A stretch of 64,000 nt of DNA from Nitrospinota bacterium (lineage in GTDB: Bacteria; Nitrospinota; Nitrospinia; UBA9942): the NCBI GenBank assembly GCA_016194325.1, contig JACQBS010000105.1:9419-73418 (forward strand), written 5' to 3'. The notes under the pieces are model-generated. The model was not told where the DNA came from and ran no database searches. It saw only the letters and a list, made by a program, of their open reading frames with translations. Made by a program: the position numbers and the translations under genes. Positions 4,417-60,710 of the stretch are shown here, piece after piece. Each line of letters opens with the position of its first letter. The first letter of the stretch is position 1.

Positions 4417-5415
4417 TTAAGGCTTAAATCTTCCCCAATGTAGATCCCATATGCTTGGGTCACTCCACCCACAGCCAAATTGCACATACCTCCAGTCTGT
4501 ACCACTCTCAACATAGAGGTTTCCATTCGGAACACGAAGTAGCCCTGGGTTATGATTGTGTGTAGCGCCAGTATTAGTGCCATTGAAGAAACCTATCTCA
4601 GTCCACGAACCAAAGAGATTATCATCATTTGACCTGAGTAAGATTACATTTAGAAGGTCACCAGAACTCATCGCGGCATACCATCTATGCTCTATACCAC
4701 TGTAAGAGATATCTGGGCTCTGCAGTCCTCTACTCCCCTGTTTAAGTTGTGTTGTGCTCCAACCACCAAAATGAATAGCATCAGCAGATTCTCTAAAAAG
4801 AATCTCATTATTCATAGTTGAATCCAAATAAACAATCCATACATTTCTTCCATCAGGAGTCCACGCACTCGGTTGTCCTGCACCATATCCAGTTGAGGGT
4901 GGGTTGGCTACCCCTATAATAGGATTACCAGAATACTTTACCCAATTCTTTCCATCATTGGAGAGTGCAACTCCTATCATTGTATCATCTCCATTTGGTC
5001 CACCACCTAATCGTGCCCCTGTATAGTACATAGCATAGGAGTAGTTTGTACCATTATAAGTAAAACTCCCCTTGATTACACTTGGGTCACAGACATGGAG
5101 TGTTGCCCATGGCTCACCAGGAGTTAAAACAACCTCTGGGGTTGTCCATCCGGTAGGATACCATTCTGAATAATAAATATGGTCCCCTGCTGAACCCGGT
5201 TTTTGACCGCACCACCATGACTTTATATAAGGACCATCTCCATACATGAACGATGAGCCGTAGTCATAGCCTGCCTTTGAAATGGATGGACCAAGATATT
5301 CTGTTGTCCATGCATAAGCCATACTCACCCTACACATTAGGATAACTGCTACTAATAGATAGACACATGCTTTAGTTAATTTACTCATTATTTTTTCACC
5401 TCCTCTCTGTATCAA
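4417..5415 (-). CDS. Secreted protein, possibly a glycoside-hydrolase-like beta-propeller
   Basis: N-terminal signal peptide; Trp/Gly-rich repeats; context in a glycan cluster. Confidence 0.3.
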   Translation of the reverse strand: MIQRGGEKIMSKLTKACVYLLVAVILMCRVSMAYAWTTEYLGPSISKAGYDYGSSFMYGDGPYIKSWWCGQKPGSAGDHIYYSEWYPTGWTTPEVVLTPGEPWATLHVCDPSVIKGSFTYNGTNYSYAMYYTGARLGGGPNGDDTMIGVALSNDGKNWVKYSGNPIIGVANPPSTGYGAGQPSAWTPDGRNVWIVYLDSTMNNEILFRESADAIHFGGWSTTQLKQGSRGLQSPDISYSGIEHRWYAAMSSGDLLNVILLRSNDDNLFGSWTEIGFFNGTNTGATHNHNPGLLRVPNGNLYVESGTDWRYVQFGCGWSDPSIWDLHWGRFKP

Positions 5416-22942: not shown

Positions 22943-23710
22943 TCAAAAGTTCATTATGAGTAATTCTGTAACTTTTTGTTTTTTATCTACCCCTCCAATA
23001 TTATACATTGTTTCAACTTTTTTGATATTAAAATCCTTATATAGTTCTCTTATCTCTTTCGTATTATTAATAGACATTATAAATTTACCTGAGATTGACT
23101 TCAAGATGTCTCTTATCTTAACGAAGTCATCCTTATAGAATATGCCTTTTCCATAATATCCTTCACAGTCATAATAGGGAGGATCGAGGTAAAAAAATGT
23201 GTGAGCCTTATCGTATCGTTCTATCAATTTTTCATAATGCATATTCTCAATAAATACCCTTACAAGTCTGAGATGGGCAGCAGAAAGTTCCTCCTCTATT
23301 CTTAATAAATTAAGTCTTGATGGTCTAACTGTTGAGCTTGTAAATGTTGGATTATCTACTCTGCTGGCATATCCTGTCTTCAAGAGATAATAGAACCTTA
23401 CTGCCCTCTGTATGTCTGTCAGTGTGCTGGGATTTTCATCTTTAAATCTTTGAAACTCATCTCTTGCAACCAGTATCCACCTAAAAAATCTTATAAATTC
23501 GTCTAAGTGGTGTTTTACTACCCGATAAAGAGTCACAAGGTTTTTATTGATGTCATTTAGAACTTCAACATCAGACTCGTCTTTTTTAAACAGTAGCCAT
23601 GCTGCACCTGCGAATACTTCACAGTAACAGGTATGTTTTGGAATTAGCGGAATAATCTTATTTGAAATGATAGATTTCCCTCCTAAATACGATAAAAAAC
23701 TTTTTCTCAT
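22943..23710 (-). CDS. Dam-family (D12 class) N6-adenine DNA methyltransferase
   Basis: N-terminal FLSYLGGK, motif I EVFAGAAW, C-terminal DPPY catalytic motif. Start set at MRKSF (23710), which avoids overlap with the RT. Confidence 0.75.
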   Translation of the reverse strand: MRKSFLSYLGGKSIISNKIIPLIPKHTCYCEVFAGAAWLLFKKDESDVEVLNDINKNLVTLYRVVKHHLDEFIRFFRWILVARDEFQRFKDENPSTLTDIQRAVRFYYLLKTGYASRVDNPTFTSSTVRPSRLNLLRIEEELSAAHLRLVRVFIENMHYEKLIERYDKAHTFFYLDPPYYDCEGYYGKGIFYKDDFVKIRDILKSISGKFIMSINNTKEIRELYKDFNIKKVETMYNIGGVDKKQKVTELLIMNF

Positions 23711-23723
23711 TGTATCTCCCTCC

Positions 23724-24746
23724 CTAATTTTTGCTAAATGTAATACCACCAAAAACTCTTTTCACTACATTATAGCTATTAGAATGTTTTACATGCCCAA
23801 GCCATGAGGTTATAGATTGTTTAATCTTTTCGAGTGTTATTTTATTGTGTTTATATAACTCCACAAACTTTTTGAGTTTTCTCCGCATTCTTATGAAGCT
23901 CCTTTTTCTTAAGAGCCTATGAGTTGGCCATGTGCGATATCCTACAAAGTCAACCCCATGAGAAATAGGAAAAACAGAGGTTTTATAATTTAGCTGAAGC
24001 CGTAATGTGTGCATTAAAAAGTCACCTATTTCTACTTTCCATAAGTGCAGTTGCTTTTTATTGCTGTGTAACAACACAAAGTCGTCCATATACCTGATAT
24101 AAAATTTAACCTGCAGTTTCTCCTTTACGAAATGGTCAAGCTCATTCAGATACACATTTGCAAATAACTGACTTGTCAGATTTCCTATTGGGAGTCCCTT
24201 ATCTCCATCCGCACTATCTACAATCTCATCAATAAGCATTAGTGTCCTTTTGCATCTTATTGTCCTTCTAATTATGTTCTTCAATGCCTCATGATCTACG
24301 GAGGGAAAGAATTTCGATATATCGGCTTTCAGACAATAAACGGTATTCCATTTTCGTTGCGCCCTCCTTAGAAACTCTACAAGCCTATTAGATGATGCAT
24401 GTGTACCTTTTTTACTTCTACACGCATAAGAGTCATTAATAAACTTCTTTTCAAGAAGTGGCTCTATAACAGTGCATAAGGCATGGTGGATAACTCTATC
24501 CCTAAATGGTAATGCCGAAATCACTCTTCTCTTTGGTTCATGTATAACGAACTTCCTGTATTGCCCTGTTTTGTAACCACCATTCATCAATTCACTCTGT
24601 AAAACAAACAATTCCTCCTCTATATTGCTACTGAATTCTAACACCTCCTTCTTATATCGCTTACAGCGTCTCGCTTTGAGGTATGCATTATAGAGATTGT
24701 CAAAGGTATATATCTTTTCAAACAAGGCATTATATGTTTTAGGCAT
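23724..24746 (-). CDS. Diversity-generating retroelement (DGR) reverse transcriptase
   Basis: RT motifs 1-7 including YMDD (YIRYMDDFVLL) and the DGR-specific motif 4 LPIGNLTSQLFANVYL. 340 aa, no maturase or endonuclease domain; lies next to the TR. Confidence 0.85.
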   Translation of the reverse strand: MPKTYNALFEKIYTFDNLYNAYLKARRCKRYKKEVLEFSSNIEEELFVLQSELMNGGYKTGQYRKFVIHEPKRRVISALPFRDRVIHHALCTVIEPLLEKKFINDSYACRSKKGTHASSNRLVEFLRRAQRKWNTVYCLKADISKFFPSVDHEALKNIIRRTIRCKRTLMLIDEIVDSADGDKGLPIGNLTSQLFANVYLNELDHFVKEKLQVKFYIRYMDDFVLLHSNKKQLHLWKVEIGDFLMHTLRLQLNYKTSVFPISHGVDFVGYRTWPTHRLLRKRSFIRMRRKLKKFVELYKHNKITLEKIKQSITSWLGHVKHSNSYNVVKRVFGGITFSKN

Positions 24747-24758
24747 ACAATCTCCTTG

Positions 24759-24950
24759 TCATTTAAATTTTCTTTTGATTGATACATCTAAATCAGTAAC
24801 TCCTCCCTGATTCAAATTAATCTCCAAGATCAATTTGCCTGTGAAATTTTTAACATCCTCTTTTATAACTTTATATTTATTCATATCCTCAATACATCTA
24901 ATCAAAGTTTTCTTCCATTCTTTTTCTTTACCCTCCATTGTGTCCTCCAA
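24759..24950 (-). CDS. Small hypothetical protein between the TR spacer and the RT
   Basis: 63-aa ORF only; no recognizable motif. Confidence 0.2.
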   Translation of the reverse strand: MEDTMEGKEKEWKKTLIRCIEDMNKYKVIKEDVKNFTGKLILEINLNQGGVTDLDVSIKRKFK

Positions 24951-24959
24951 AAATAAAAA

Positions 24960-25255
24960 AACCCAAACTAAAGCCGAAAACGGCTTTTGGGGTCTGATAG
25001 CTCTCCGATAGAAGTTATCAGCTAACCAACCGTTAACAGCTTTACTTTGGGTTTAATAGCTCTCCACAATGGAGTTATTAACTAACCAACTAAATTATGC
25101 GGCCAGTGCAATTTTATGGACTTCCCCTACTCATTGCACATAGCCTCTACAATTTTTGCCTCTGGCTTTCGCCTCGGCAGGGATTAAGAGCCTGACTGTA
25201 TTGCTGTCACTGGTGATAACTCCGTAGAGTCATCATCTCTTAAAAGTTTTAACAC
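24960..25255 (-). ncRNA. Putative structured DGR RNA segment downstream of the TR (duplicated about 47-nt hairpin units plus an AAAGCCGAAAACGGCTTT hairpin)
   Basis: Two about 80 percent identical units at 24989-25036 and 25049-25095, each internally palindromic; hairpin at 24971-24988. Confidence 0.35.
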
Positions 25256-25367
25256 AGTCACAGGCGAAGCGAGCGCCAATATTCGTATTCACATTCCACG
25301 GATAGTTGTTCAGATTGACGCACCGAGAACCAGCGATTACGCCATTATTCCAGTTGCCGCCAGCAAT
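25256..25367 (-). repeat. DGR template repeat (TR), 112 bp
   Basis: Matches 25767-25878 at 104 of 112 positions. All 8 mismatches lie at adenines of this copy on the minus/coding strand. It is non-coding and sits directly after the avd stop. Confidence 0.85.
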
Positions 25368-25371
25368 GCTC

Positions 25372-25704
25372 TTAACCCACACTTTTAATCCATCCTCCCA
25401 ATAACCTCCCTATTTCCGCTATAAGCTTACCGCTATGCTCATAACTCTTATGTGATAAATGTTTCCTGTCATGAGCAAACCTTATCAAAAACTTTAATTC
25501 CTCTAATTTTACATCAATGTCATACATCAGGGGCTTTTTATTCCTACTTTTATTAGTTCTGATAATTCCCCTTGCAATATCAAGCACACAGTTTTTAATA
25601 TGTGTGCATAGGACAAACTTTTCATACTTTGGAAATTTATCAACGATAGGGAAAAAATATAATGCAAAGTCATAAACCTTCTGATATATAATCAAATTTT
25701 CCAT
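25372..25704 (-). CDS. avd: Accessory variability determinant (Avd-like) small basic helical protein
   Basis: 110 aa, basic, predicted helical bundle; canonical position between the target gene and the TR. Confidence 0.6.
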   Translation of the reverse strand: MENLIIYQKVYDFALYFFPIVDKFPKYEKFVLCTHIKNCVLDIARGIIRTNKSRNKKPLMYDIDVKLEELKFLIRFAHDRKHLSHKSYEHSGKLIAEIGRLLGGWIKSVG

Positions 25705-25758
25705 GTAATCATTATAGTATATCCCCCCCTATATTCAAAAAATATTTCAGAGAACAGA

Positions 25759-26841
25759 TTACAGAGAGTCACAGGCGAAGCGAGCGCCAATAGTCGTATT
25801 CACATTCCACGGATAGTAGTACAGATTGACGCACCGAGAACCAGCGATAACGCCACTACTCCAGTCGCCGCCAGCAAGCAACATAACCAACTCAATGTTC
25901 GAATACATATATAGCTGACCCGCATTCATGCCCGGCATTACATCATAATAATTCCACCCGACAGTACCATCTGGTCTTATTATGAAGCAGTCAATCCACT
26001 CCCACACATTACCAACGCAGTCTACAACATTGAGAAGACTAATTGCATTAGCTACATAACCTGTGTTTTGTCTACCCGTGTTAGTTGTTGCAGACCACGC
26101 ATTTACATTATCTCCATTATTACCCTGTGGTGAGCCGTGGGCTATCTGCAGCCATTCTGCATGGGTCGGAAGCCTTTTTCCCGACCTGCGGGCCATTTCA
26201 ATAAAATTGTAACCAGACAATCCTTCTGTCCCTGTCAGTGGTATAGCATTATAGATACTTTTAGCTGTGCCGGTAAGTATGGGAGAACCGCTTCCTGCTG
26301 CGAAAGTAATCGCCTCATCAACTGAGGAGAGGTAAATATCCACCCATACACCGTTACCCAAATATACCATACCCTCCGGGCTGCAGCGTGGTTTATGGCA
26401 TAAATCCCAGACAGAATTTGGAACCACTACGCCGCTTGTTACATCTGCGACTGTAATACTATTTCTTTTCCTCCCATAGTGGAATCCGCCGATTCTACGG
26501 GAGTTCGTGGTGGTATATCCACTCGGAGCAGTAGAGTTTGCTGATATGAGCAATAATCCGTTGTCAGTGCCATTATCACAGAGATATATATAGTAGTTTA
26601 TGCCGAGGGTTAATACACCTGTATCAAGTGTCGTTACTTCGGTGTCTGTTGCAAACAGATATGCTTTCCGTGTAGAGCCACTTATTAATGAGAGGATAGT
26701 GTCTGCTTTGACTACGACCCCATTCCCTGTTGCGTTTGCCTCAAGATATTTATTTGAGATTCCCGGTCTTATATCAAGCGGGCGCATTAAAAAGACATCA
26801 TTTATTGGATATGCTGGATCATTTTTCCATATTAGTGACAT
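25759..26841 (-). CDS. DGR target protein: phage receptor-binding / tail-fiber-associated protein with C-terminal C-type-lectin (FGE-like) fold carrying the VR
   Basis: C-terminal HAEW...GNVWEWI...GGDW...RCVNLYYYPWNVNTTIGARFACD matches the FGE/CLec DGR-VR scaffold. The VR occupies the last 40 codons. Confidence 0.8.
   Translation of the reverse strand: MSLIWKNDPAYPINDVFLMRPLDIRPGISNKYLEANATGNGVVVKADTILSLISGSTRKAYLFATDTEVTTLDTGVLTLGINYYIYLCDNGTDNGLLLISANSTAPSGYTTTNSRRIGGFHYGRKRNSITVADVTSGVVVPNSVWDLCHKPRCSPEGMVYLGNGVWVDIYLSSVDEAITFAAGSGSPILTGTAKSIYNAIPLTGTEGLSGYNFIEMARRSGKRLPTHAEWLQIAHGSPQGNNGDNVNAWSATTNTGRQNTGYVANAISLLNVVDCVGNVWEWIDCFIIRPDGTVGWNYYDVMPGMNAGQLYMYSNIELVMLLAGGDWSSGVIAGSRCVNLYYYPWNVNTTIGARFACDSL
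25767..25878 (-). repeat. DGR variable repeat (VR) with GC-rich IMH at its 3' end
   Basis: Partner of the TR. The substitutions convert TR AAC/AAT (Asn) codons to TAC and similar. The GGCGCTCGCTTCGCC segment is conserved in both copies; the flanking 3' sequences differ (IMH vs IMH*). Confidence 0.85.
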
Positions 26842-26853
26842 GGTTTCCTCCTT

Positions 26854-27171
26854 TTATAATTGGTTAATAAGGTTTTCGAGTTCTGCTTTTGTAAATCCCA
26901 TTTGCAGAAATCTTGCATTTGGATTATCCACAAACTCAAAACAGATATATTTTGTCTGCCCTGCAGTATCTATTTCTGTTATAACCTTTTCATTCGAGAG
27001 TGGTATGTATGTAGATGCCACCTCCGATTTAAAACTCCAGATTTTCTCATCCGAAAACAAATCCTGCAGCTTCTTTTTAAGCTCTGCACTGTCAATCTCT
27101 CCAGTAAGTGCAAGGGCATGACAGGTCTCAACATCTACCCTTGTGTTTAAAACGCTTGGTATTCCTCTCAT
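26854..27171 (-). CDS. Hypothetical phage protein between the tail fiber and the DGR target
   Basis: ORF only. Confidence 0.3.
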   Translation of the reverse strand: MRGIPSVLNTRVDVETCHALALTGEIDSAELKKKLQDLFSDEKIWSFKSEVASTYIPLSNEKVITEIDTAGQTKYICFEFVDNPNARFLQMGFTKAELENLINQL

Positions 27172-27184
27172 AGTTTTACCTCCT

Positions 27185-28111
27185 TTAAATTAAAATTACT
27201 GCCTTGCCTGTTTGAGGCGTGGCAAAATATATTTTAAGATTATTGCTGTCAACTTTTCTTGTTTTTGTATATGAAATTTCTGTGTAATCTAACACAGTCC
27301 CCGATATTATTCCGTCTCCGCAGTAACTCCCATCTCCACAGTAACTCCCGTCTCCGCAAAAACCACTTGCGTAATATGTCTCTGCTGCGGATTCTGAGAA
27401 GACTTTTACTACCGGGATATTCGGAGTATTGAGGTTGTGTATTATGCTCCATTTGTCTAATGCTGTATCTTGAATATATTCTATCCGTTTTGAAATTCCT
27501 GAATGAGCATTGGGATCACCGTTGTGGACATTAATAGCTGAGCCTATTTGAGCAGGGATATTATGCTCGGTTGTATTTTGTTTATGAGAGTCAAGGGAGT
27601 TCCTTATGTCCTGGTGAGATGCAGCCGATACATCATGATTCTGAATATCCTTTTTAGTTGCAATCACAACTGTATCTGATATAACGGCAGTTACATTCTG
27701 TGTATTCGCTACAACAGTGAAAATATCGGTAACATTCTCAATAAGGGTTACGCCGGCAACAGGTATGTAATCAGCCTTATTCCCTGCGGAGGTCACGGCA
27801 TAGAGGATTTCTCCTAAATCAGGGTCATTTGCAAATATCCCTATTTCACGAATGAAAAAGCCTGCGGTCAGCCCTGTATTCGTCAGGACAAATCTGAGTT
27901 TTGATGTCCCGTCACCAGCAACTTCCAGAGATTGAATTGCCAGACTCTTTTTCTCGCTTATAAGTGCGGTTAAAATTGTTGGATCCTGTCCAGTGGTCCA
28001 CGCTCCATCTCCTATTCCAATCCGTGTGAATTGCAGTGTAACACCTGTCTGTGCCTTTGCCAACAGGTTTCTCCCTCTATTTGTTAATATGGTGCCGCTG
28101 AAATCACCCAT
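27185..28111 (-). CDS. Phage tail fiber protein (putative) with an internal (GDGSYC)3 repeat
   Basis: Position after the baseplate gpI/gpJ genes; Gly/Thr-rich; tandem repeat. Confidence 0.45.
   Translation of the reverse strand: MGDFSGTILTNRGRNLLAKAQTGVTLQFTRIGIGDGAWTTGQDPTILTALISEKKSLAIQSLEVAGDGTSKLRFVLTNTGLTAGFFIREIGIFANDPDLGEILYAVTSAGNKADYIPVAGVTLIENVTDIFTVVANTQNVTAVISDTVVIATKKDIQNHDVSAASHQDIRNSLDSHKQNTTEHNIPAQIGSAINVHNGDPNAHSGISKRIEYIQDTALDKWSIIHNLNTPNIPVVKVFSESAAETYYASGFCGDGSYCGDGSYCGDGIISGTVLDYTEISYTKTRKVDSNNLKIYFATPQTGKAVILI
27313..27360. repeat. 18-bp tandem repeat (about 2.7 copies) inside the tail fiber gene encoding GDGSYC units
   Basis: Read directly: CGTCTCCGCAGTAACTCC / CATCTCCACAGTAACTCC / CGTCTCCGCAAAAACC. 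Confidence 0.7.
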
Positions 28112-55747: not shown

Positions 55748-55980
55748 TTAAGTATTCTCGGCCGCTCCCTTAGCTCCCTATCTATAAGGCAGTAAAGTGG
55801 GCTCCTTCCTCTTTTCCCAATCTGTTTAATGAACCCTTCCTTCTTATAAATACACATAATCAGCTTTACATAGAGCCTCTTAATCCCTGTAACCTGTGCA
55901 ATTTCATTGACTGTCCAGATTGGGGAATACCTCCACGCCCTCCATATCCTGTCTGCTTTTTCACCATATTTCTCCCTCAT
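55744..55980 (-). CDS. Small winged-HTH-like protein
   Basis: 78 aa, basic. Confidence 0.3.
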   Translation of the reverse strand: MREKYGEKADRIWRAWRYSPIWTVNEIAQVTGIKRLYVKLIMCIYKKEGFIKQIGKRGRSPLYCLIDRELRERPRILK

Positions 55981-56852
55981 AACACCCTCACTATGTCCAT
56001 CGTTACTACATGCTGATTAGAGGTATTCATTATTCTTACAATTGAATGTGCGTCCCTTACCACATATCTAAAATCCCCTCCCGACCTCTTCCATATTGCC
56101 TTTGCACATTCGGCATCGAGGTCAATCCCTGCTGCAAGCCTGAAATACGCCGAGACATCCGATAGTGTTATCTCCTCAAAGGCGACTGTCTGACGAACAC
56201 GACTCTTTAATCTTCTTTCTCTATCCATATACCTCACAACAGCCTCCTCACCTATGAGGACAATCGGGCATAAACACCGTTCATTAAGCCCCCGCAGCAT
56301 CTCTACAGATTGCAGGTGCATCTTATCTGCCTCATCTATAAGTATTATCTTCCTCTTACTCCTTGTCGCCTTTTCAATCTCCATCAGACAATCACGGAAT
56401 CTAAAAGGGCGGATTCCGTTCAGCTCATAGGCTATCTCTCTGGACACATCTGTGAGGGAAAATCCTGTGATGAATTGGACATACACTGCATCGGGGTTAT
56501 TCACCGCATAATGCACCGCAGCCTTTGTCTTCCCCCTGCCTGCTGTCCCTACAACAACACCAAAAGATGAGGTCAAATCCCCCTCCGATAGCTCATCACA
56601 GAGGGAATTGAATTTTCTGACATTGCTTGTCTGAATAAAGACATCTGCCCTCACCCTGAAATTTTTTTCTTGCAATCTGTATCCATGTTCTGATAGTTTA
56701 TTGACAATATCTGCCTCAATCTCAGAGGTATTACCACTGTATTTGCCCCTGATAATGAGGCTTATGGTGGACTCATCATAGCCTGTGAGCTTGGCGACTC
56801 TGGCATTGATGAGTTCACCTTTATACTGCTCCATTAACTTCTTTAATTGCAT
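55977..56852 (-). CDS. MuB-like AAA+ transposition target-DNA activator
   Basis: Walker A GTAGRGKTKAA and Walker B ILIDEAD; N-terminal HTH; follows the transposase gene. Confidence 0.7.
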   Translation of the reverse strand: MQLKKLMEQYKGELINARVAKLTGYDESTISLIIRGKYSGNTSEIEADIVNKLSEHGYRLQEKNFRVRADVFIQTSNVRKFNSLCDELSEGDLTSSFGVVVGTAGRGKTKAAVHYAVNNPDAVYVQFITGFSLTDVSREIAYELNGIRPFRFRDCLMEIEKATRSKRKIILIDEADKMHLQSVEMLRGLNERCLCPIVLIGEEAVVRYMDRERRLKSRVRQTVAFEEITLSDVSAYFRLAAGIDLDAECAKAIWKRSGGDFRYVVRDAHSIVRIMNTSNQHVVTMDIVRVL

Positions 56853-56910: not shown

Positions 56911-57180
56911 TCACCCCCTTTCATTCATGGATTTGTAAAGCCTCTCAAACTCCTCAAATCTTACCTTCTCTGTCTCGTCCATCCCTGCCTCATACCGCCT
57001 CATAAACTCCTCATCTGCCTCAGTGAGATGGAATCCACCAAGATGATCCTCAAGCAGCGACTGATAGCGGTCAACCTCATATTTATATGTCCCCCTCTTT
57101 GCCCTGAGTTTTATGGGTCTTTGTTCTGTTGACTCTGCCACAATTCTTTCAGTTTCTTTTTTTAACTCCTCATCCGTCAT
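56911..57180 (-). CDS. Small acidic hypothetical protein
   Basis: ORF only. Confidence 0.25.
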   Translation of the reverse strand: MTDEELKKETERIVAESTEQRPIKLRAKRGTYKYEVDRYQSLLEDHLGGFHLTEADEEFMRRYEAGMDETEKVRFEEFERLYKSMNERG

Positions 57181-59234
57181 CTGTCTTCTGTCTTCTGGCT
57201 TCTGACTATCTTCTGGCTGCTATATTCAATGACTCCAGGTACCGGTGCGGTAAGTTTTTTGTAATGCTCTCTGACCTTTTCCATCATCTCCTTTTTCCAC
57301 TTCATAAGCTCCGTTACAAGCTCATTGTCCTTCATTGAGCTTTCAGGAACCTTGCGGAGTGTAATTGCCTCTCCGCCGGGCTTTACTGCAAAGGCTTTTT
57401 CAAAATCGTAAGGGTCATACCTTACCTCAACCCTCGTGCCATCCGCTAAATCCCATAGACCACATTCAAGGTTCAAACCCTCATAAAGTTTCTTCTCTAT
57501 CCATATCCGCCCACGATTAACAGTCCTCTCCTCCCTTTTTAAGAGGACAAAATCAAGCTCATGCTCCGGCATATACACCGGCTTAAACCCTTCATTCTTA
57601 ACCGCATACAAAAGCTCCTCCATCGGAGTTCTCCCTAATGCTGAGTGTCGGCGATTTGAATAAACCCCCACTCCCTCTATCGCCTTTAAAATAAACTCCT
57701 CCGGGGTGAGGAGCTTGTTTTCTTTAATGAGGTTTTTAAGCCTTCTATCTGATAATGCCTTCTCCTCAGATGTCCCTTTAAGCTCTCTGATATGTCCTGG
57801 AACGCCGAGGTCTAAAAGTATTCGCTCAAAACTCCCAAAAAACCTTTCAATTAGTTTTGCCTTAGCATTATAAGGTCTTGCATATCGATGCCATACCTCT
57901 GGAGTATCTACCGTCTCTATAATCTTTCCTTCGTCTTCCCCCTCGATGGCATATTTGTTATCCTTTGTCCTGTATAACTCCACAATATCTTTACTCTGTA
58001 TCCCATAAGCCTGCAGGTCATTCCCCACAAGATTGAAAAACCTTGAAGTCTCAGGCTTTCCATTATCCGTATATGCCTTTTGAAATTTTCCAAAATGTCC
58101 TATCCCCATTCTCATGGAAAGCCCTATCATGTATGAGTTGTAACGGTCAGCAAGACTGCATCCGTAGATATTTCTTGTGCGGAGGTCAAGCCAGAAATAT
58201 CCCTCCATCCTGAATATTTTGTCTATCTCCCTGTCATGCACCCAGAAATCAAACCTGTGCTGGTCTCCAACGATACATTCAAAGGGTGCAAGGTCTTTGT
58301 ATTGCCTGATAATATAGAAGATATTGTCAAGGGCACGGCTGCCGCCACGGGCATACTTTTCAAGGAGAGGATTGAGTCGGGTGAAATGCTCATAAGCGGA
58401 AGATTCAGAGCCGATTTTCCAGCTCTCCTTTTCTGCCTTTGATGCCACAGCCTGATAGACAAACCGTTTTGAAGCATCACCGGCTTCACGGATAGCCTTG
58501 AGATATACACCCTGCATATATAAGAGCGCCTCTGGATCCCATGCTGTCGTCCCTTTCTGCTTTCTCTCCTTATTAAAATATTGCGAGCCTTGCTCCTTAT
58601 ACCCTTTAATATCACCGCAAAGTGTCTGGTATGTTATGCCTGCCTCTACCGCACATTTCCTTTTCCACTTACCTTTTTTATACCCCTGCGGCACGGAGAG
58701 CGCCTTTTGCACCAGCTCCATCCTCTCATAATCAATCTTGCATACCGTTATCTGCCCCTCACAATTTCCCCCTTTATCTACCTTCATCTTTTCAATCTCC
58801 CACTGTGCCTGTGATGAGAGCCTTTCTTTAATATGTTCTGAGAGTAGCTTTGCAGTTTCTTGATTTTTCTGAATCCACTTCAACTGGGCATCGGGAGGGA
58901 GAGAGGATAGGGCAATTCGGTATTGCTTACCACCGTTGCCATTAACTTTGATTGCCTTATATTTACCTTCTTTACAGCCCTTCAGTACTGCTTGAAGTGT
59001 AATACCTAAAAATTCTTCTACTTCTTTCCGTGTCAAATATATGTCATCATTTTGAGCATGATTTTGGTTGTAACCTTTGGTCAAAATTGCCTGATTTTCG
59101 GTTGTAACCTTACCATTTTGGTTGTAACCTTGGTTGTAACCTTCAGCTAAAAGGTTACAACCTTCTTTTTCCCCTATCCCGTCATTAATTTGACTTTTCA
59201 TAACCCCCCTCTTTACTGTCAGGGATAATGCCAT
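57177..59234 (-). CDS. Mu-type DDE transposase (MuA-like)
   Basis: rve-type core with CIVGDQHRFD, YTDNGKPE and IERFFGS blocks (DDE); N-terminal DNA-binding region; 685 aa. The 5' end overlaps a decamer repeat array, so the true start may lie downstream. Confidence 0.75.
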   Translation of the reverse strand: MALSLTVKRGVMKSQINDGIGEKEGCNLLAEGYNQGYNQNGKVTTENQAILTKGYNQNHAQNDDIYLTRKEVEEFLGITLQAVLKGCKEGKYKAIKVNGNGGKQYRIALSSLPPDAQLKWIQKNQETAKLLSEHIKERLSSQAQWEIEKMKVDKGGNCEGQITVCKIDYERMELVQKALSVPQGYKKGKWKRKCAVEAGITYQTLCGDIKGYKEQGSQYFNKERKQKGTTAWDPEALLYMQGVYLKAIREAGDASKRFVYQAVASKAEKESWKIGSESSAYEHFTRLNPLLEKYARGGSRALDNIFYIIRQYKDLAPFECIVGDQHRFDFWVHDREIDKIFRMEGYFWLDLRTRNIYGCSLADRYNSYMIGLSMRMGIGHFGKFQKAYTDNGKPETSRFFNLVGNDLQAYGIQSKDIVELYRTKDNKYAIEGEDEGKIIETVDTPEVWHRYARPYNAKAKLIERFFGSFERILLDLGVPGHIRELKGTSEEKALSDRRLKNLIKENKLLTPEEFILKAIEGVGVYSNRRHSALGRTPMEELLYAVKNEGFKPVYMPEHELDFVLLKREERTVNRGRIWIEKKLYEGLNLECGLWDLADGTRVEVRYDPYDFEKAFAVKPGGEAITLRKVPESSMKDNELVTELMKWKKEMMEKVREHYKKLTAPVPGVIEYSSQKIVRSQKTEDR
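59066..59162. repeat. Five copies of the decamer GGTTGTAACC/GGTTACAACC (dyad-symmetric) within 100 bp
   Basis: Read directly at 59066, 59100, 59120, 59132 and 59153. Confidence 0.7.
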
Positions 59235-59776: not shown

Positions 59777-59822
59777 TATTAATGTTTAAAATAGATGTCA
59801 TGATTTGGATTGGAAATATTAT

Positions 59823-59999
59823 CTACGCCACCTTCCCCTCCTCGGGCCACAACTCCGCAATCGGCAGTCCAATCTCATCCGCTATAGCTTTGCGGAGCTT
59901 GTGGGATTTAATCCTCCCAGTGATGGTTTTATTAATAGCAGACCGACAAACCCCGATTCTACGGGCAATTGCCGCACCCTTTATTCCCTTTTTAACCAT
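59823..59999 (-). CDS. ner: Ner-like HTH transcriptional regulator
   Basis: 58 aa; KGAAIARRIGVCRSAINK...IAELWPEEG resembles Mu Ner/Nlp; divergent from the repressor gene. Confidence 0.55.
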   Translation of the reverse strand: MVKKGIKGAAIARRIGVCRSAINKTITGRIKSHKLRKAIADEIGLPIAELWPEEGKVA

Positions 60000-60083
60000 C
60001 TCAATCCGTATTTTTTTGTCTATTGTTATCAACATGGAGATAAATATAATCGTATTACAAGTATTTGTCAAGTAAAAAATGCT

Positions 60084-60710
60084 ATGCAAGTAAAAAAAAA
60101 TATAGGTGATAGGATTAAACAAGTGCGAAAGGCTCAACACCTTACACAGCAGGCATTCGCAAGGATTCTGGGAATAACACAGGGTTTTTATACCGGCATA
60201 GAGACAGGTAAATATAGTACAAGCAATGAAATTTTAACTTGCATAACAAGTAATTTTAATATCAATCTTAATTGGCTTCTCACTGGCGAGGGTGAGATGT
60301 ATAAAAGACTCCCGATACCTAAAGCAAAGCCAACAGTGCTTGTCCCTGTTCTTGGTAGAGTCCCGGCAGGCTTTCCAAATGAGATTCCTGAGAATGAAAT
60401 AACTGAATATGTTCATTTACCAGATGCACCACCAGGTTCCTTTGTCCTTATAGTAAAAGGCGACAGTATGAGTCCCAAAATAAAAGACGGAGATTATGTC
60501 ATCTTTAAACCAAATGGAGAGATTAAAAGCGGAGATGTGATAGTAGTAAATAATGAATATGGTGAAACTATGCTAAAAAAATACTATGTGGATAAAAATG
60601 GAGATGTGTTGTTGGTCAGCGAAAATCCTGAATATCCCGCTTTTAAACCAAACGAACACTATAGTATAATAGGTAAGGTTATAGATGGGTGGAGAAAAGT
60701 AAAATTTTAG
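60084..60710 (+). CDS. Phage repressor, HTH-XRE plus S24 (LexA-like) peptidase
   Basis: N-terminal IKQVRKAQHLTQQAFARILGITQ HTH; C-terminal GDSMSP ... KK S24 signature. Start set at the Met at 60084. Confidence 0.7.
   Translation: MQVKKNIGDRIKQVRKAQHLTQQAFARILGITQGFYTGIETGKYSTSNEILTCITSNFNINLNWLLTGEGEMYKRLPIPKAKPTVLVPVLGRVPAGFPNEIPENEITEYVHLPDAPPGSFVLIVKGDSMSPKIKDGDYVIFKPNGEIKSGDVIVVNNEYGETMLKKYYVDKNGDVLLVSENPEYPAFKPNEHYSIIGKVIDGWRKVKF

Follow-up and report, generated by a model that had tools for sequence, protein, structure and literature searches.

The reverse transcriptase of a probable BPP-1-type diversity-generating retroelement in a Mu-like prophage of an uncultured Nitrospinota bacterium

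The diversity-generating retroelement (DGR) of phage BPP-1 comprises the target gene mtd with its variable repeat (VR), the accessory gene avd (bbp7), a template repeat (TR) and the reverse transcriptase (RT) gene brt. Its functional RNA consists of the final nucleotides of avd followed by the TR and by a spacer (Sp) of 140 nt, and the cDNA is primed in cis from a spacer adenosine. We take this adenosine to be Sp 56 (A56-G57), which lies in GGUCAGCC when counted from the annotated end of the TR. The elements of this RNA have been described by cryo-electron microscopy: Avd binds a stem-loop immediately downstream of the TR and bRT binds another, TR and spacer pair in a primer duplex (TR:Sp), 11 bp between avd and spacer (avd:Sp) form the ‘cPRT Stop’ duplex, a short stem-loop is accompanied by A-minor adenosines, and G57 is required (bioRxiv 10.1101/2023.10.23.563531). 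Here we describe a locus of this type in a 64,000-nt stretch of DNA from a Nitrospinota bacterium (assembly GCA_016194325.1, contig JACQBS010000105.1, positions 9,419 to 73,418), which is referred to below as the window and to which all coordinates refer unless another locus is named. The open reading frame (ORF) at 23724..24746 on the minus strand is very probably the RT of a BPP-1-type DGR that is located at the tail-fibre end of a Mu-like prophage and diversifies an Mtd-like receptor-binding protein. The system is of a known and well-characterised kind, with three features that are specific to the lineage or to this copy: a long spacer domain, an orphan ORF and the deletion of a hairpin close to the VR.

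The RT gene is a single intact ORF, from ATG to stop, that fills 23724..24746 exactly and encodes 340 aa; the plus-strand frame of the same interval is riddled with stops. A strong Shine-Dalgarno sequence (AAGGAG) is found upstream and more than 7,990 homologues were recovered at E<=1e-10, and for these reasons the observation cannot be ascribed to chance. In a Pfam search the protein matched RVT_1 (8e-20) and no other family. A preliminary description of this DNA had proposed a 340-aa RT at this position, to which the minus strand is to be added since none was stated, with YMDD in motif 5, and the tetrad was indeed located at residue 219 in the sequence YIRYMDDFVLL. DGR RTs are marked by the signature [I/V/L]GxxxSQ in motif 4, where other RTs carry QGxxxSP, and two residues of the BPP-1 enzyme (bRT), R74 and I181, the second being the first residue of IGxxxSQ, promote misincorporation at adenines (PMC7826257). 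Motif 4 of the window protein reads LPIGNLTSQLFANVYL, with IGNLTSQ at residue 187, and on careful alignment it falls opposite IGSLTSQ of bRT and QGGxxSP of the group II intron protein LtrA, so that the DGR-type SQ claimed in the preliminary description is present; the motif it gave for other RTs, QGxxSP, is one residue short and has to be corrected to the three-x form QGxxxSP (PMC7826257). The equivalents of both R74 (in EPKRRVISAL, at residue 70) and I181 (in IGNLTSQ) are retained. No GIIM maturase or endonuclease domain was detected in the RT by Pfam, and the protein stops at residue 340. Over its C-terminal ~60 residues (~272-331) it can be aligned with the thumb/X region of both bRT and group II RTs; as judged from the sequence, the enzyme has a thumb and is devoid of the D/En extension and of a recognisable GIIM domain. 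The earlier statement that maturase and endonuclease domains are absent is therefore kept for GIIM and D/En, and is qualified by the presence of the thumb (X-like) region.

The gene forms part of a complete cassette whose order on the minus strand, target/VR, avd, TR, spacer and RT, is identical to that of BPP-1, as is the strand arrangement. A 111-nt repeat occurs twice, 511 nt apart. One copy, the TR (core 25256..25366, with 24 adenines), begins 3 nt away from the stop codon of avd and has a GC-rich 3' part, GGCGCUCGCUUCGCCUGUGACU (25277..25256); it lies on the same strand as the RT gene at the distance of 510 bp first proposed for it, the TR end being 509-510 nt from the RT start codon. The other copy, the VR (25767..25877, minus strand), forms the 3'-terminal part of the target gene and ends 5 nt short of the stop codon. 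The two differ at seven positions, at every one of which the TR has an adenine, replaced in the VR by G in three cases, by T in three and by C in one; the probability of this by chance, given 24 adenines in 111 nt, is P=1.0e-5. Both repeats share GGCGCTCGCTTCGCCTGTGACT and then diverge (GTGTT in one against CTCTG in the other), an arrangement that is compatible with the initiation of mutagenic homing (IMH) sites IMH/IMH*. When the full TR and both of its halves were searched with adenines masked, no VR other than the known one was found in the 64-kb window.

The target, at 25759..26841 (minus strand), is an Mtd-like receptor-binding protein of 360 aa with an Mtd second domain followed by a C-terminal FGE-sulfatase/C-type-lectin-like domain. 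It matches the Mtd structure in the Protein Data Bank (PDB; 1yu4) with E=3.6e-27 over residues 37-360, as well as the Pfam families mtd_2nd and FGE-sulfatase/CLec-like, and the variable domain is accordingly predicted to be C-type-lectin-like. Read in the frame of the target, the TR contains 14 variable codons, nine AAY and five others, none of which can become a stop, and the computed diversity is about 3.9e13 protein variants; the BPP-1 TR (134 nt, against 111 nt here) is likewise AAY-rich, with both systems allowing in the order of 1e13 variants. Avd, the accessory variability determinant, is encoded at 25372..25704 (minus strand) as a protein of 110 aa with an isoelectric point (pI) of 9.6. 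It scores 121.4 bits against the NCBIfam model NF033474 DivGenRetAVD, above the cutoff of 80, and matches bAvd (1.4e-32) and Bbp7 (1.8e-6); both Avd and the target are thus homologous to their BPP-1 counterparts. A promoter-like sequence, TTGAAT-16-TATAAT (25711..25738, minus strand), which is a match to the consensus only, ends 6 nt before the avd ATG, and its -10 box is kept in 7/9 loci of the lineage. No convincing Shine-Dalgarno sequence was seen at the right distance before the avd ATG, and if the promoter-like site is used, avd and the DGR RNA would form a leaderless transcript.

The closest relatives of this element are sister DGRs from prophage contigs of Nitrospirota and other uncultured bacteria (P0002-P0018; L003-L008, L015-L022), whose RTs are 63-73% identical to that of the window. 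They share with it the 360-aa Mtd-like target, the 110-aa Avd, a long spacer, a small ORF before the RT, the same RNA structure and usually a Dam methylase. The DGR RNA was studied in an alignment that runs from the end of avd to the small ORF and comprises the window and eight independent sister loci; all window coordinates in this and the following paragraph are on the minus strand. Unguided RNAalifold recovered an 11-bp duplex between GGGUUAAGAGC (25368..25378), which covers the stop codon of avd and adjoins the TR at its 5' end, and GCUCUUAAUCC in the spacer (25181..25191). This avd:Sp duplex, which an explicit pair count also supports, is paired in 9/9 sequences and shows compensatory double changes at 5/11 pairs. 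Next to it, the spacer primer strand AAUACAGUCA (25193..25202) pairs with the TR 3' end UGACUGUGUU (25260..25251), and across the nine loci this TR:Sp primer helix is 87% paired with two covarying pairs. By analogy with BPP-1, the candidate priming adenosine is 25193, which is likewise followed by a G. In this geometry copying would begin at G25261, which precedes the point of TR/VR divergence by six bases, and at the other end the homology of TR and VR reaches its 5' limit right at the avd:Sp duplex. Directly 3' of the TR, at the position of the Avd-binding stem-loop, is a 9-bp stem with a UACG tetraloop (25214..25235). Individual folding revealed a stem of 8-10 bp, sometimes bulged, with a 4-nt loop right after the TR in 8/9 loci (UACG in the window and UACG, CACG, CAAG or UACU in the others), and its value of 60% in the column-wise count is due to indels. 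Further downstream, a stem-loop UGCC...GGCA with an inner GGC-GAAA-GCC, followed by AAAAA (25150..25179), matches the BPP-1 ‘cPRT Stop’ stem-loop and its A-minor adenosines; the helix is 100% paired, and the stem-loop with its five adenosines was present in 9/9 per-locus folds. The position of the BPP-1 bRT-binding stem-loop is taken by a covarying hairpin at 25101..25145 (alignment columns 287-334). With an explicit BPP-1-style model of four elements, standard pairs made up 86%, whereas slid registers reached 31-48%, and double changes occurred at 11 pairs; these values were attained by 0/500 shuffles. The structure of the DGR RNA is therefore equivalent to that of BPP-1, as shown by covariation, and the binding of proteins and the chemistry of priming would by analogy be the same. 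An alternative suggested by RNAalifold, in which ACUGG at the TR 5' end pairs with CCAGU in the spacer (columns 71-75/214-218), is invariant save for one one-sided change of C-G to U-G; covariation speaks neither for nor against it and it was not adopted.

The RT-n RNA motifs have been proposed to serve DGRs (Weinberg et al.; PMC5737381), and two of the corresponding Rfam families, RT-10/Phage_DGR (RF03022) and RT-14 (RF02921), occupy the same place between TR and RT. The Phage_DGR consensus GUGGUCAGC was compared with the spacer primer strand; this family shares the GUCAG primer motif, followed by a GC stem-loop and an A-rich segment. BPP-1, used as a positive control, scored 104.7 bits with Phage_DGR, unlike the window spacer, which did not match this family. 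The window spacer has a match to RT-14 at 25257..25101 that covers the full-length model (1-144) and remains below threshold (38.5 bits against 48.1), and the sister loci gave no match to RT-10/Phage_DGR or RT-14 at E<=0.1. The window spacer RNA is best described as analogous to these families rather than as a demonstrated member of either. A fluoride-riboswitch match obtained in a permissive Rfam scan (E=0.94) was discarded as meaningless.

Beyond the part that resembles BPP-1, which covers about 25255..25101 in the window, the RNA of this lineage includes an additional structured domain of ~140 nt (24951..25090, minus strand) that is absent from BPP-1. It consists of hairpin 1 (~25082..25052) and hairpin 2 (~25022..24992), which are alike and are each preceded by GGUUAG, a small GC hairpin (24987..24970), and a long closing stem between CCCAAAGU (~25052..25044) and AGUUUGGG (~24969..24961) that encloses hairpin 2 and the small GC hairpin, with hairpin 1 just 5' of it. 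In relatives the two strands of the long stem read CCCGAAAUCU and AGAUUUCGGG, a compensatory change of G-C to A-U, and a U-run follows the stem (24960..24951). The domain is kept with covariation in 9/9 loci and resembles a large intrinsic terminator situated ahead of the RT gene. Together with a 59-aa ORF, it accounts for a TR-to-RT distance of ~510 nt here as opposed to 144 nt in BPP-1.

Taken together, these elements suggest a sequence of events modelled on BPP-1. An RNA containing the 3' end of avd, the TR and the spacer would be produced, possibly from the promoter-like site upstream of avd, and would end at the terminator-like domain, at ~24990-24951. As covariation shows, it folds as the BPP-1 DGR RNA does, with a stem-loop after the TR, the TR 3' end paired with the spacer strand that ends ...GUCA-G, and the avd stop-codon region paired with the next 11 spacer bases, followed by the stem-loop and the A-run; the RT and Avd presumably bind this structure. 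By analogy, and in keeping with the geometry, RT and Avd would prime cDNA synthesis in cis from a spacer adenosine, for which 25193 is the candidate, and the TR would be copied from G25261 toward its 5' end until synthesis halts at the avd:Sp duplex. During this step the RT would misincorporate at template adenines, as is suggested by the conservation of the R74 and I181 residues and by the seven of seven TR/VR differences at adenines. The cDNA would then replace the VR at the 3' end of the Mtd-like gene and so alter the receptor specificity of the phage, a putative case of tropism switching.

Names in the public databases point to other kinds of enzyme. The identical protein at NCBI carries the product name ‘group II intron reverse transcriptase domain-containing protein’, the best NCBIfam match of the RT is TIGR04416 group_II_RT_mat (E=2.9e-38), and DGR RTs are the sister group of group II intron RTs; a group II intron RT/maturase might thus be considered, and we regard it as highly improbable. 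The TIGR04416 score of 131.9 bits is far under the cutoff of 300, motif 4 is IGxxxSQ instead of QGxxxSP, a GIIM/endonuclease domain is missing, and a search of the window with Rfam at gathering thresholds revealed neither group II intron RNA nor a retron msr/msd nor any other RNA. The best PDB match of the protein is BPP-1 bRT (8ub7; 245.7 bits, E=7e-72, residues 2-327 of 340), which is 170 bits stronger than the best group II intron RTs (66-74 bits, 1e-19), and the two proteins are 39-40% identical over their full length with IGxLTSQ, YMDD and R74 in common. Phylogenetic placement, which the preliminary description had put forward as a check, agreed with these scores. In a neighbour-joining tree of the query, seven close relatives, four phage DGR RTs (from BPP-1, Vibrio phage VP58.5, the archaeal virus ANMV-1 and a crAss-like phage) and four plasmid-borne LtrA proteins, with the support of the key split computed as a bipartition frequency, the DGR RTs including the query were separated from the four LtrA sequences in 100/100 bootstraps, so that the query falls inside the DGR group with BPP-1. 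The query is 39-48% identical to the DGR references, as compared with 23-25% for LtrA. For motif 4 the aligned DGR proteins have [ILV]-G-N/S-L/Y-T-S-Q, and LtrA has Q-G-G-x-x-S-P, all four references showing PQGGxxSP. Model score, motif 4, domain content and tree all refute a group II intron identity. In the RT of the crAss-like phage cr53_1 (L014 1198-2220, translation table 11) an in-frame stop stands where the Q of IGxxxSQ is expected, which is consistent with stop-codon reassignment in that phage. A retron or defence-associated RT (DRT/UG/Abi) that neighbours a phage tail gene by coincidence could be read from the JGI label of relatives of the protein, ‘retron-type reverse transcriptase’, and from PADLOC matches to generic RT and UG models (1e-49 to 1e-14), which reflect the shared RT fold only and are weaker than the bRT match. 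This too seems hardly credible: the retron model NF038233 reached 54.5 bits against a cutoff of 235 (it is through such profile cutoffs that retrons are excluded, the tree having no retron RTs among its references), NCBIfam Drt models remained far below their cutoffs, Drt2 and Drt3a in the PDB gave <25 bits, no retron RNA accompanies the gene, and the context of Avd, TR/VR and Mtd accounts fully for it. The interpretation as a DGR RT is supported, and the NCBI and JGI names are misleading.

The identity of the RT and its cassette can be regarded as near certain, and it is the present activity of this copy that is uncertain. In BPP-1, a GC-rich hairpin/cruciform of 7-10 bp with a 4-nt loop lies ~4-34 bp downstream of the VR and is critical for the efficiency of homing, although stem mutants retain residual activity (PMC3240598). 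Several observations weigh against reading the window locus as a working DGR of this kind. A deletion of ~50 nt in the mtd-avd spacer (25704..25766, minus strand) has removed the GC-rich hairpin after the VR, and it is this loss that makes the homing efficiency of the copy uncertain; the remaining spacer is only 54 nt long and contains no GC stem. The terminator-like structure between the DGR RNA and the RT gene leaves the route of RT expression unclear, the spacer of this lineage (window and relatives) has no match in Rfam at gathering thresholds, and the RT protein of this copy is known from a single contig, with an activity signal, the VR against the TR adenines, that is historical. The locus could accordingly be a true DGR whose copy is a relic or is strongly attenuated, with the loss of the hairpin curbing mutagenic homing, which we consider possible and rather unlikely. 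The hairpin is present in 7/9 members of the lineage (L003, L005, L006, L007, L008, L016 and L018; in L003, where positions 4945-5036 were compared, it reads GGGCGGGC-GAAA-GCCCGCC), and the window VR has 7 substitutions against 9-15 in most relatives, both of which fit an attenuated copy, as does the critical role of the BPP-1 stem. Against this stand the intact RT, Avd, TR, spacer elements and target ORF, and the divergence of VR from TR at adenines only, which implies that homing has occurred; moreover, besides the residual activity of the BPP-1 stem mutants, L015 has lost half of its hairpin, yet carries 13 adenine substitutions in its VR. The hairpin affects efficiency and is not family-defining. 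The lineage as a whole appears to be active, because L003 (VR from 4829) and L004 (VR from 2547), which come from two assemblies and have the same RT and an identical TR, differ in their VRs: these have 10 and 12 substitutions at different adenine sites, and at TR-adenine positions only. Of the ~120 TR/VR mismatches counted in 11 related loci, a single one falls outside the TR adenines. In L018/L019 (4201-4497) the RT is cut to 98 aa and is followed by host genes, the VR having 14 adenine substitutions and one non-adenine mismatch; by its sequence this element is a decaying DGR.

Between the extra RNA domain and the RT gene is the orphan small ORF (24759..24938, minus strand), which encodes 59 aa with a pI of 9.3. 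Its start is most likely the ATG at 24938, which follows GGAGG; the mechanically called ORF begins at TTG 24950 and has 63 aa. The ORF shows third-codon-position variation in the DNA alignment and invariant W, C, TG, N, GG and D residues in the protein alignment, and it was found directly upstream of the RT in 15/15 loci of the lineage that were scanned (for instance at L003 5805-5990, L005 4814-4999, L006/L007 4800-4985, L008 4813-5001, L015 2731-2919 and L016/L018 4001-4189). The product had no match in Pfam, NCBIfam or PHROG, and a PADLOC match to NsnC (E=0.0079) is insignificant. An AlphaFold2 model (pLDDT 77) predicts a helix and a beta-hairpin and has no significant neighbour in the PDB (best E=0.46), and a profile search of 1.84 billion representatives returned just two 50%-identity clusters below 1e-10. 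The known accessory genes of DGRs are Avd, HRDC, MSL and CH1 (PMC5758913), to none of which the small ORF corresponds. It is absent from BPP-1, VP58.5, ANMV-1 and crAss cr53 and from 23 genomic loci with RTs 26-52% identical; a 64-aa ORF upstream of the ANMV-1 RT was rejected as a homologue, being an N-rich translation of the TR.

A tentative suggestion, which we think improbable on balance, is that the extra RNA domain and the small ORF together form an undescribed regulatory or accessory module in a sub-clade of DGR RTs. If this were true, the module might control RT expression through read-through of the terminator, or might bind the DGR RNA, and it would represent a fifth accessory class beside Avd, HRDC, MSL and CH1. 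A strict linkage of the small ORF to DGRs is weakened by two observations: none of the 23 loci with RT identity <=52% carries it, and weak homologues with an FTGK...N.xQGGITD core occur in the unrelated phage contigs L023 and L024, where they precede ParB-N6/N4 DNA methylase genes and no RT is present. In view of these homologues, and of the Dam methylase found after the RT in most sister loci, the small ORF may belong to the phage and accompany the region instead of being a component of the DGR, a passenger role that is to be taken as a lead and not as an established finding.

A Mu-like prophage occupies ~22.9-60.7 kb of the window, with the DGR cassette as its final module at the tail-fibre end. 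The prophage encodes an S24/HTH repressor (59805-60710, plus strand), a transposase (57177-59234) with its AAA+ partner (55977-56852), GemA, a terminase, the Mu portal, Mu F, major head, sheath, tape measure and baseplate J/I-like proteins and a tail-collar fibre, and by its gene content it appears to be a complete-looking Mu-like transposable prophage. It is flanked by host genes, which on one side encode a nitroreductase, an Fe-S flavoprotein and a secretin, and on the other side an H+-pyrophosphatase. The tail-collar fibre protein (27185..28111, minus strand) contains a tandem triple peptide repeat, CGDGSY-CGDGSY-CGDG, near its C-terminus, and between its gene and that of the Mtd-like protein lies a 105-aa ORF without a family match (26854..27171, minus strand), with ORFs of 94-118 aa in the same slot of sister loci. 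Directly after the RT is a gene for a Dam-family N6-adenine DNA methyltransferase (22943..23710, minus strand); its start is probably the ATG at 23710, after GGGAGGGAG, and not the overlapping TTG at 23752 from which the mechanical ORF begins. Its position makes it a neighbour of the RT, which would not of itself imply membership of the DGR. The identical RT protein in NCBI is encoded on an 83-kb contig of a ‘Nitrospinae bacterium’ metagenome-assembled genome (MAG), and the nearest relatives come from Nitrospirota MAGs.

The carrier is one of the respects in which the locus differs from BPP-1, here a Mu-like transposable myovirus and there a podovirus-like Rauchvirus; the Dam methylase after the RT and, in the window copy, the missing GC hairpin downstream of the VR are others. 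Amongst deposited phages, the closest RTs (41-48% identity over 95-99% of the length) are those of Vibrio VP58.5/VHML-type and Mu-like phages (for instance Vibrio vB-Vv-ZX4290, Pseudoalteromonas ACA1 and Bacillus BalMu-1). Their DGRs also lie beside tail-fibre genes, and in several of the Mu-like phages at the extreme end of the genome, but their hosts are Proteobacteria and Bacillota, as compared with a Nitrospinae/Nitrospirota-type MAG here, and the VP58.5 locus has no small ORF. The sister DGRs differ from the window in that most retain the GC-rich hairpin after the VR, in the truncated RT of L018/L019 and in their varied phage backbones (Mu-like, with a P2-like baseplate, or integrase-bearing).

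The current understanding of DGRs is not overturned by this locus, the main practical value of which is a correction of annotation: what NCBI lists as a ‘group II intron RT domain’ protein belongs to a complete DGR and is its RT. A Mu-like prophage of an uncultured bacterium of the Nitrospinae/Nitrospirota type joins the hosts of BPP-1-type DGRs, and the RNA architecture of BPP-1, with its avd:Sp ‘stop’ duplex, primer duplex and stem-loop with adenosines, is conserved with covariation in a distant lineage. The long spacer domain, the small ORF and the loss of the hairpin provide natural variants that bear on how RT expression is controlled and on the need for the hairpin at the target.

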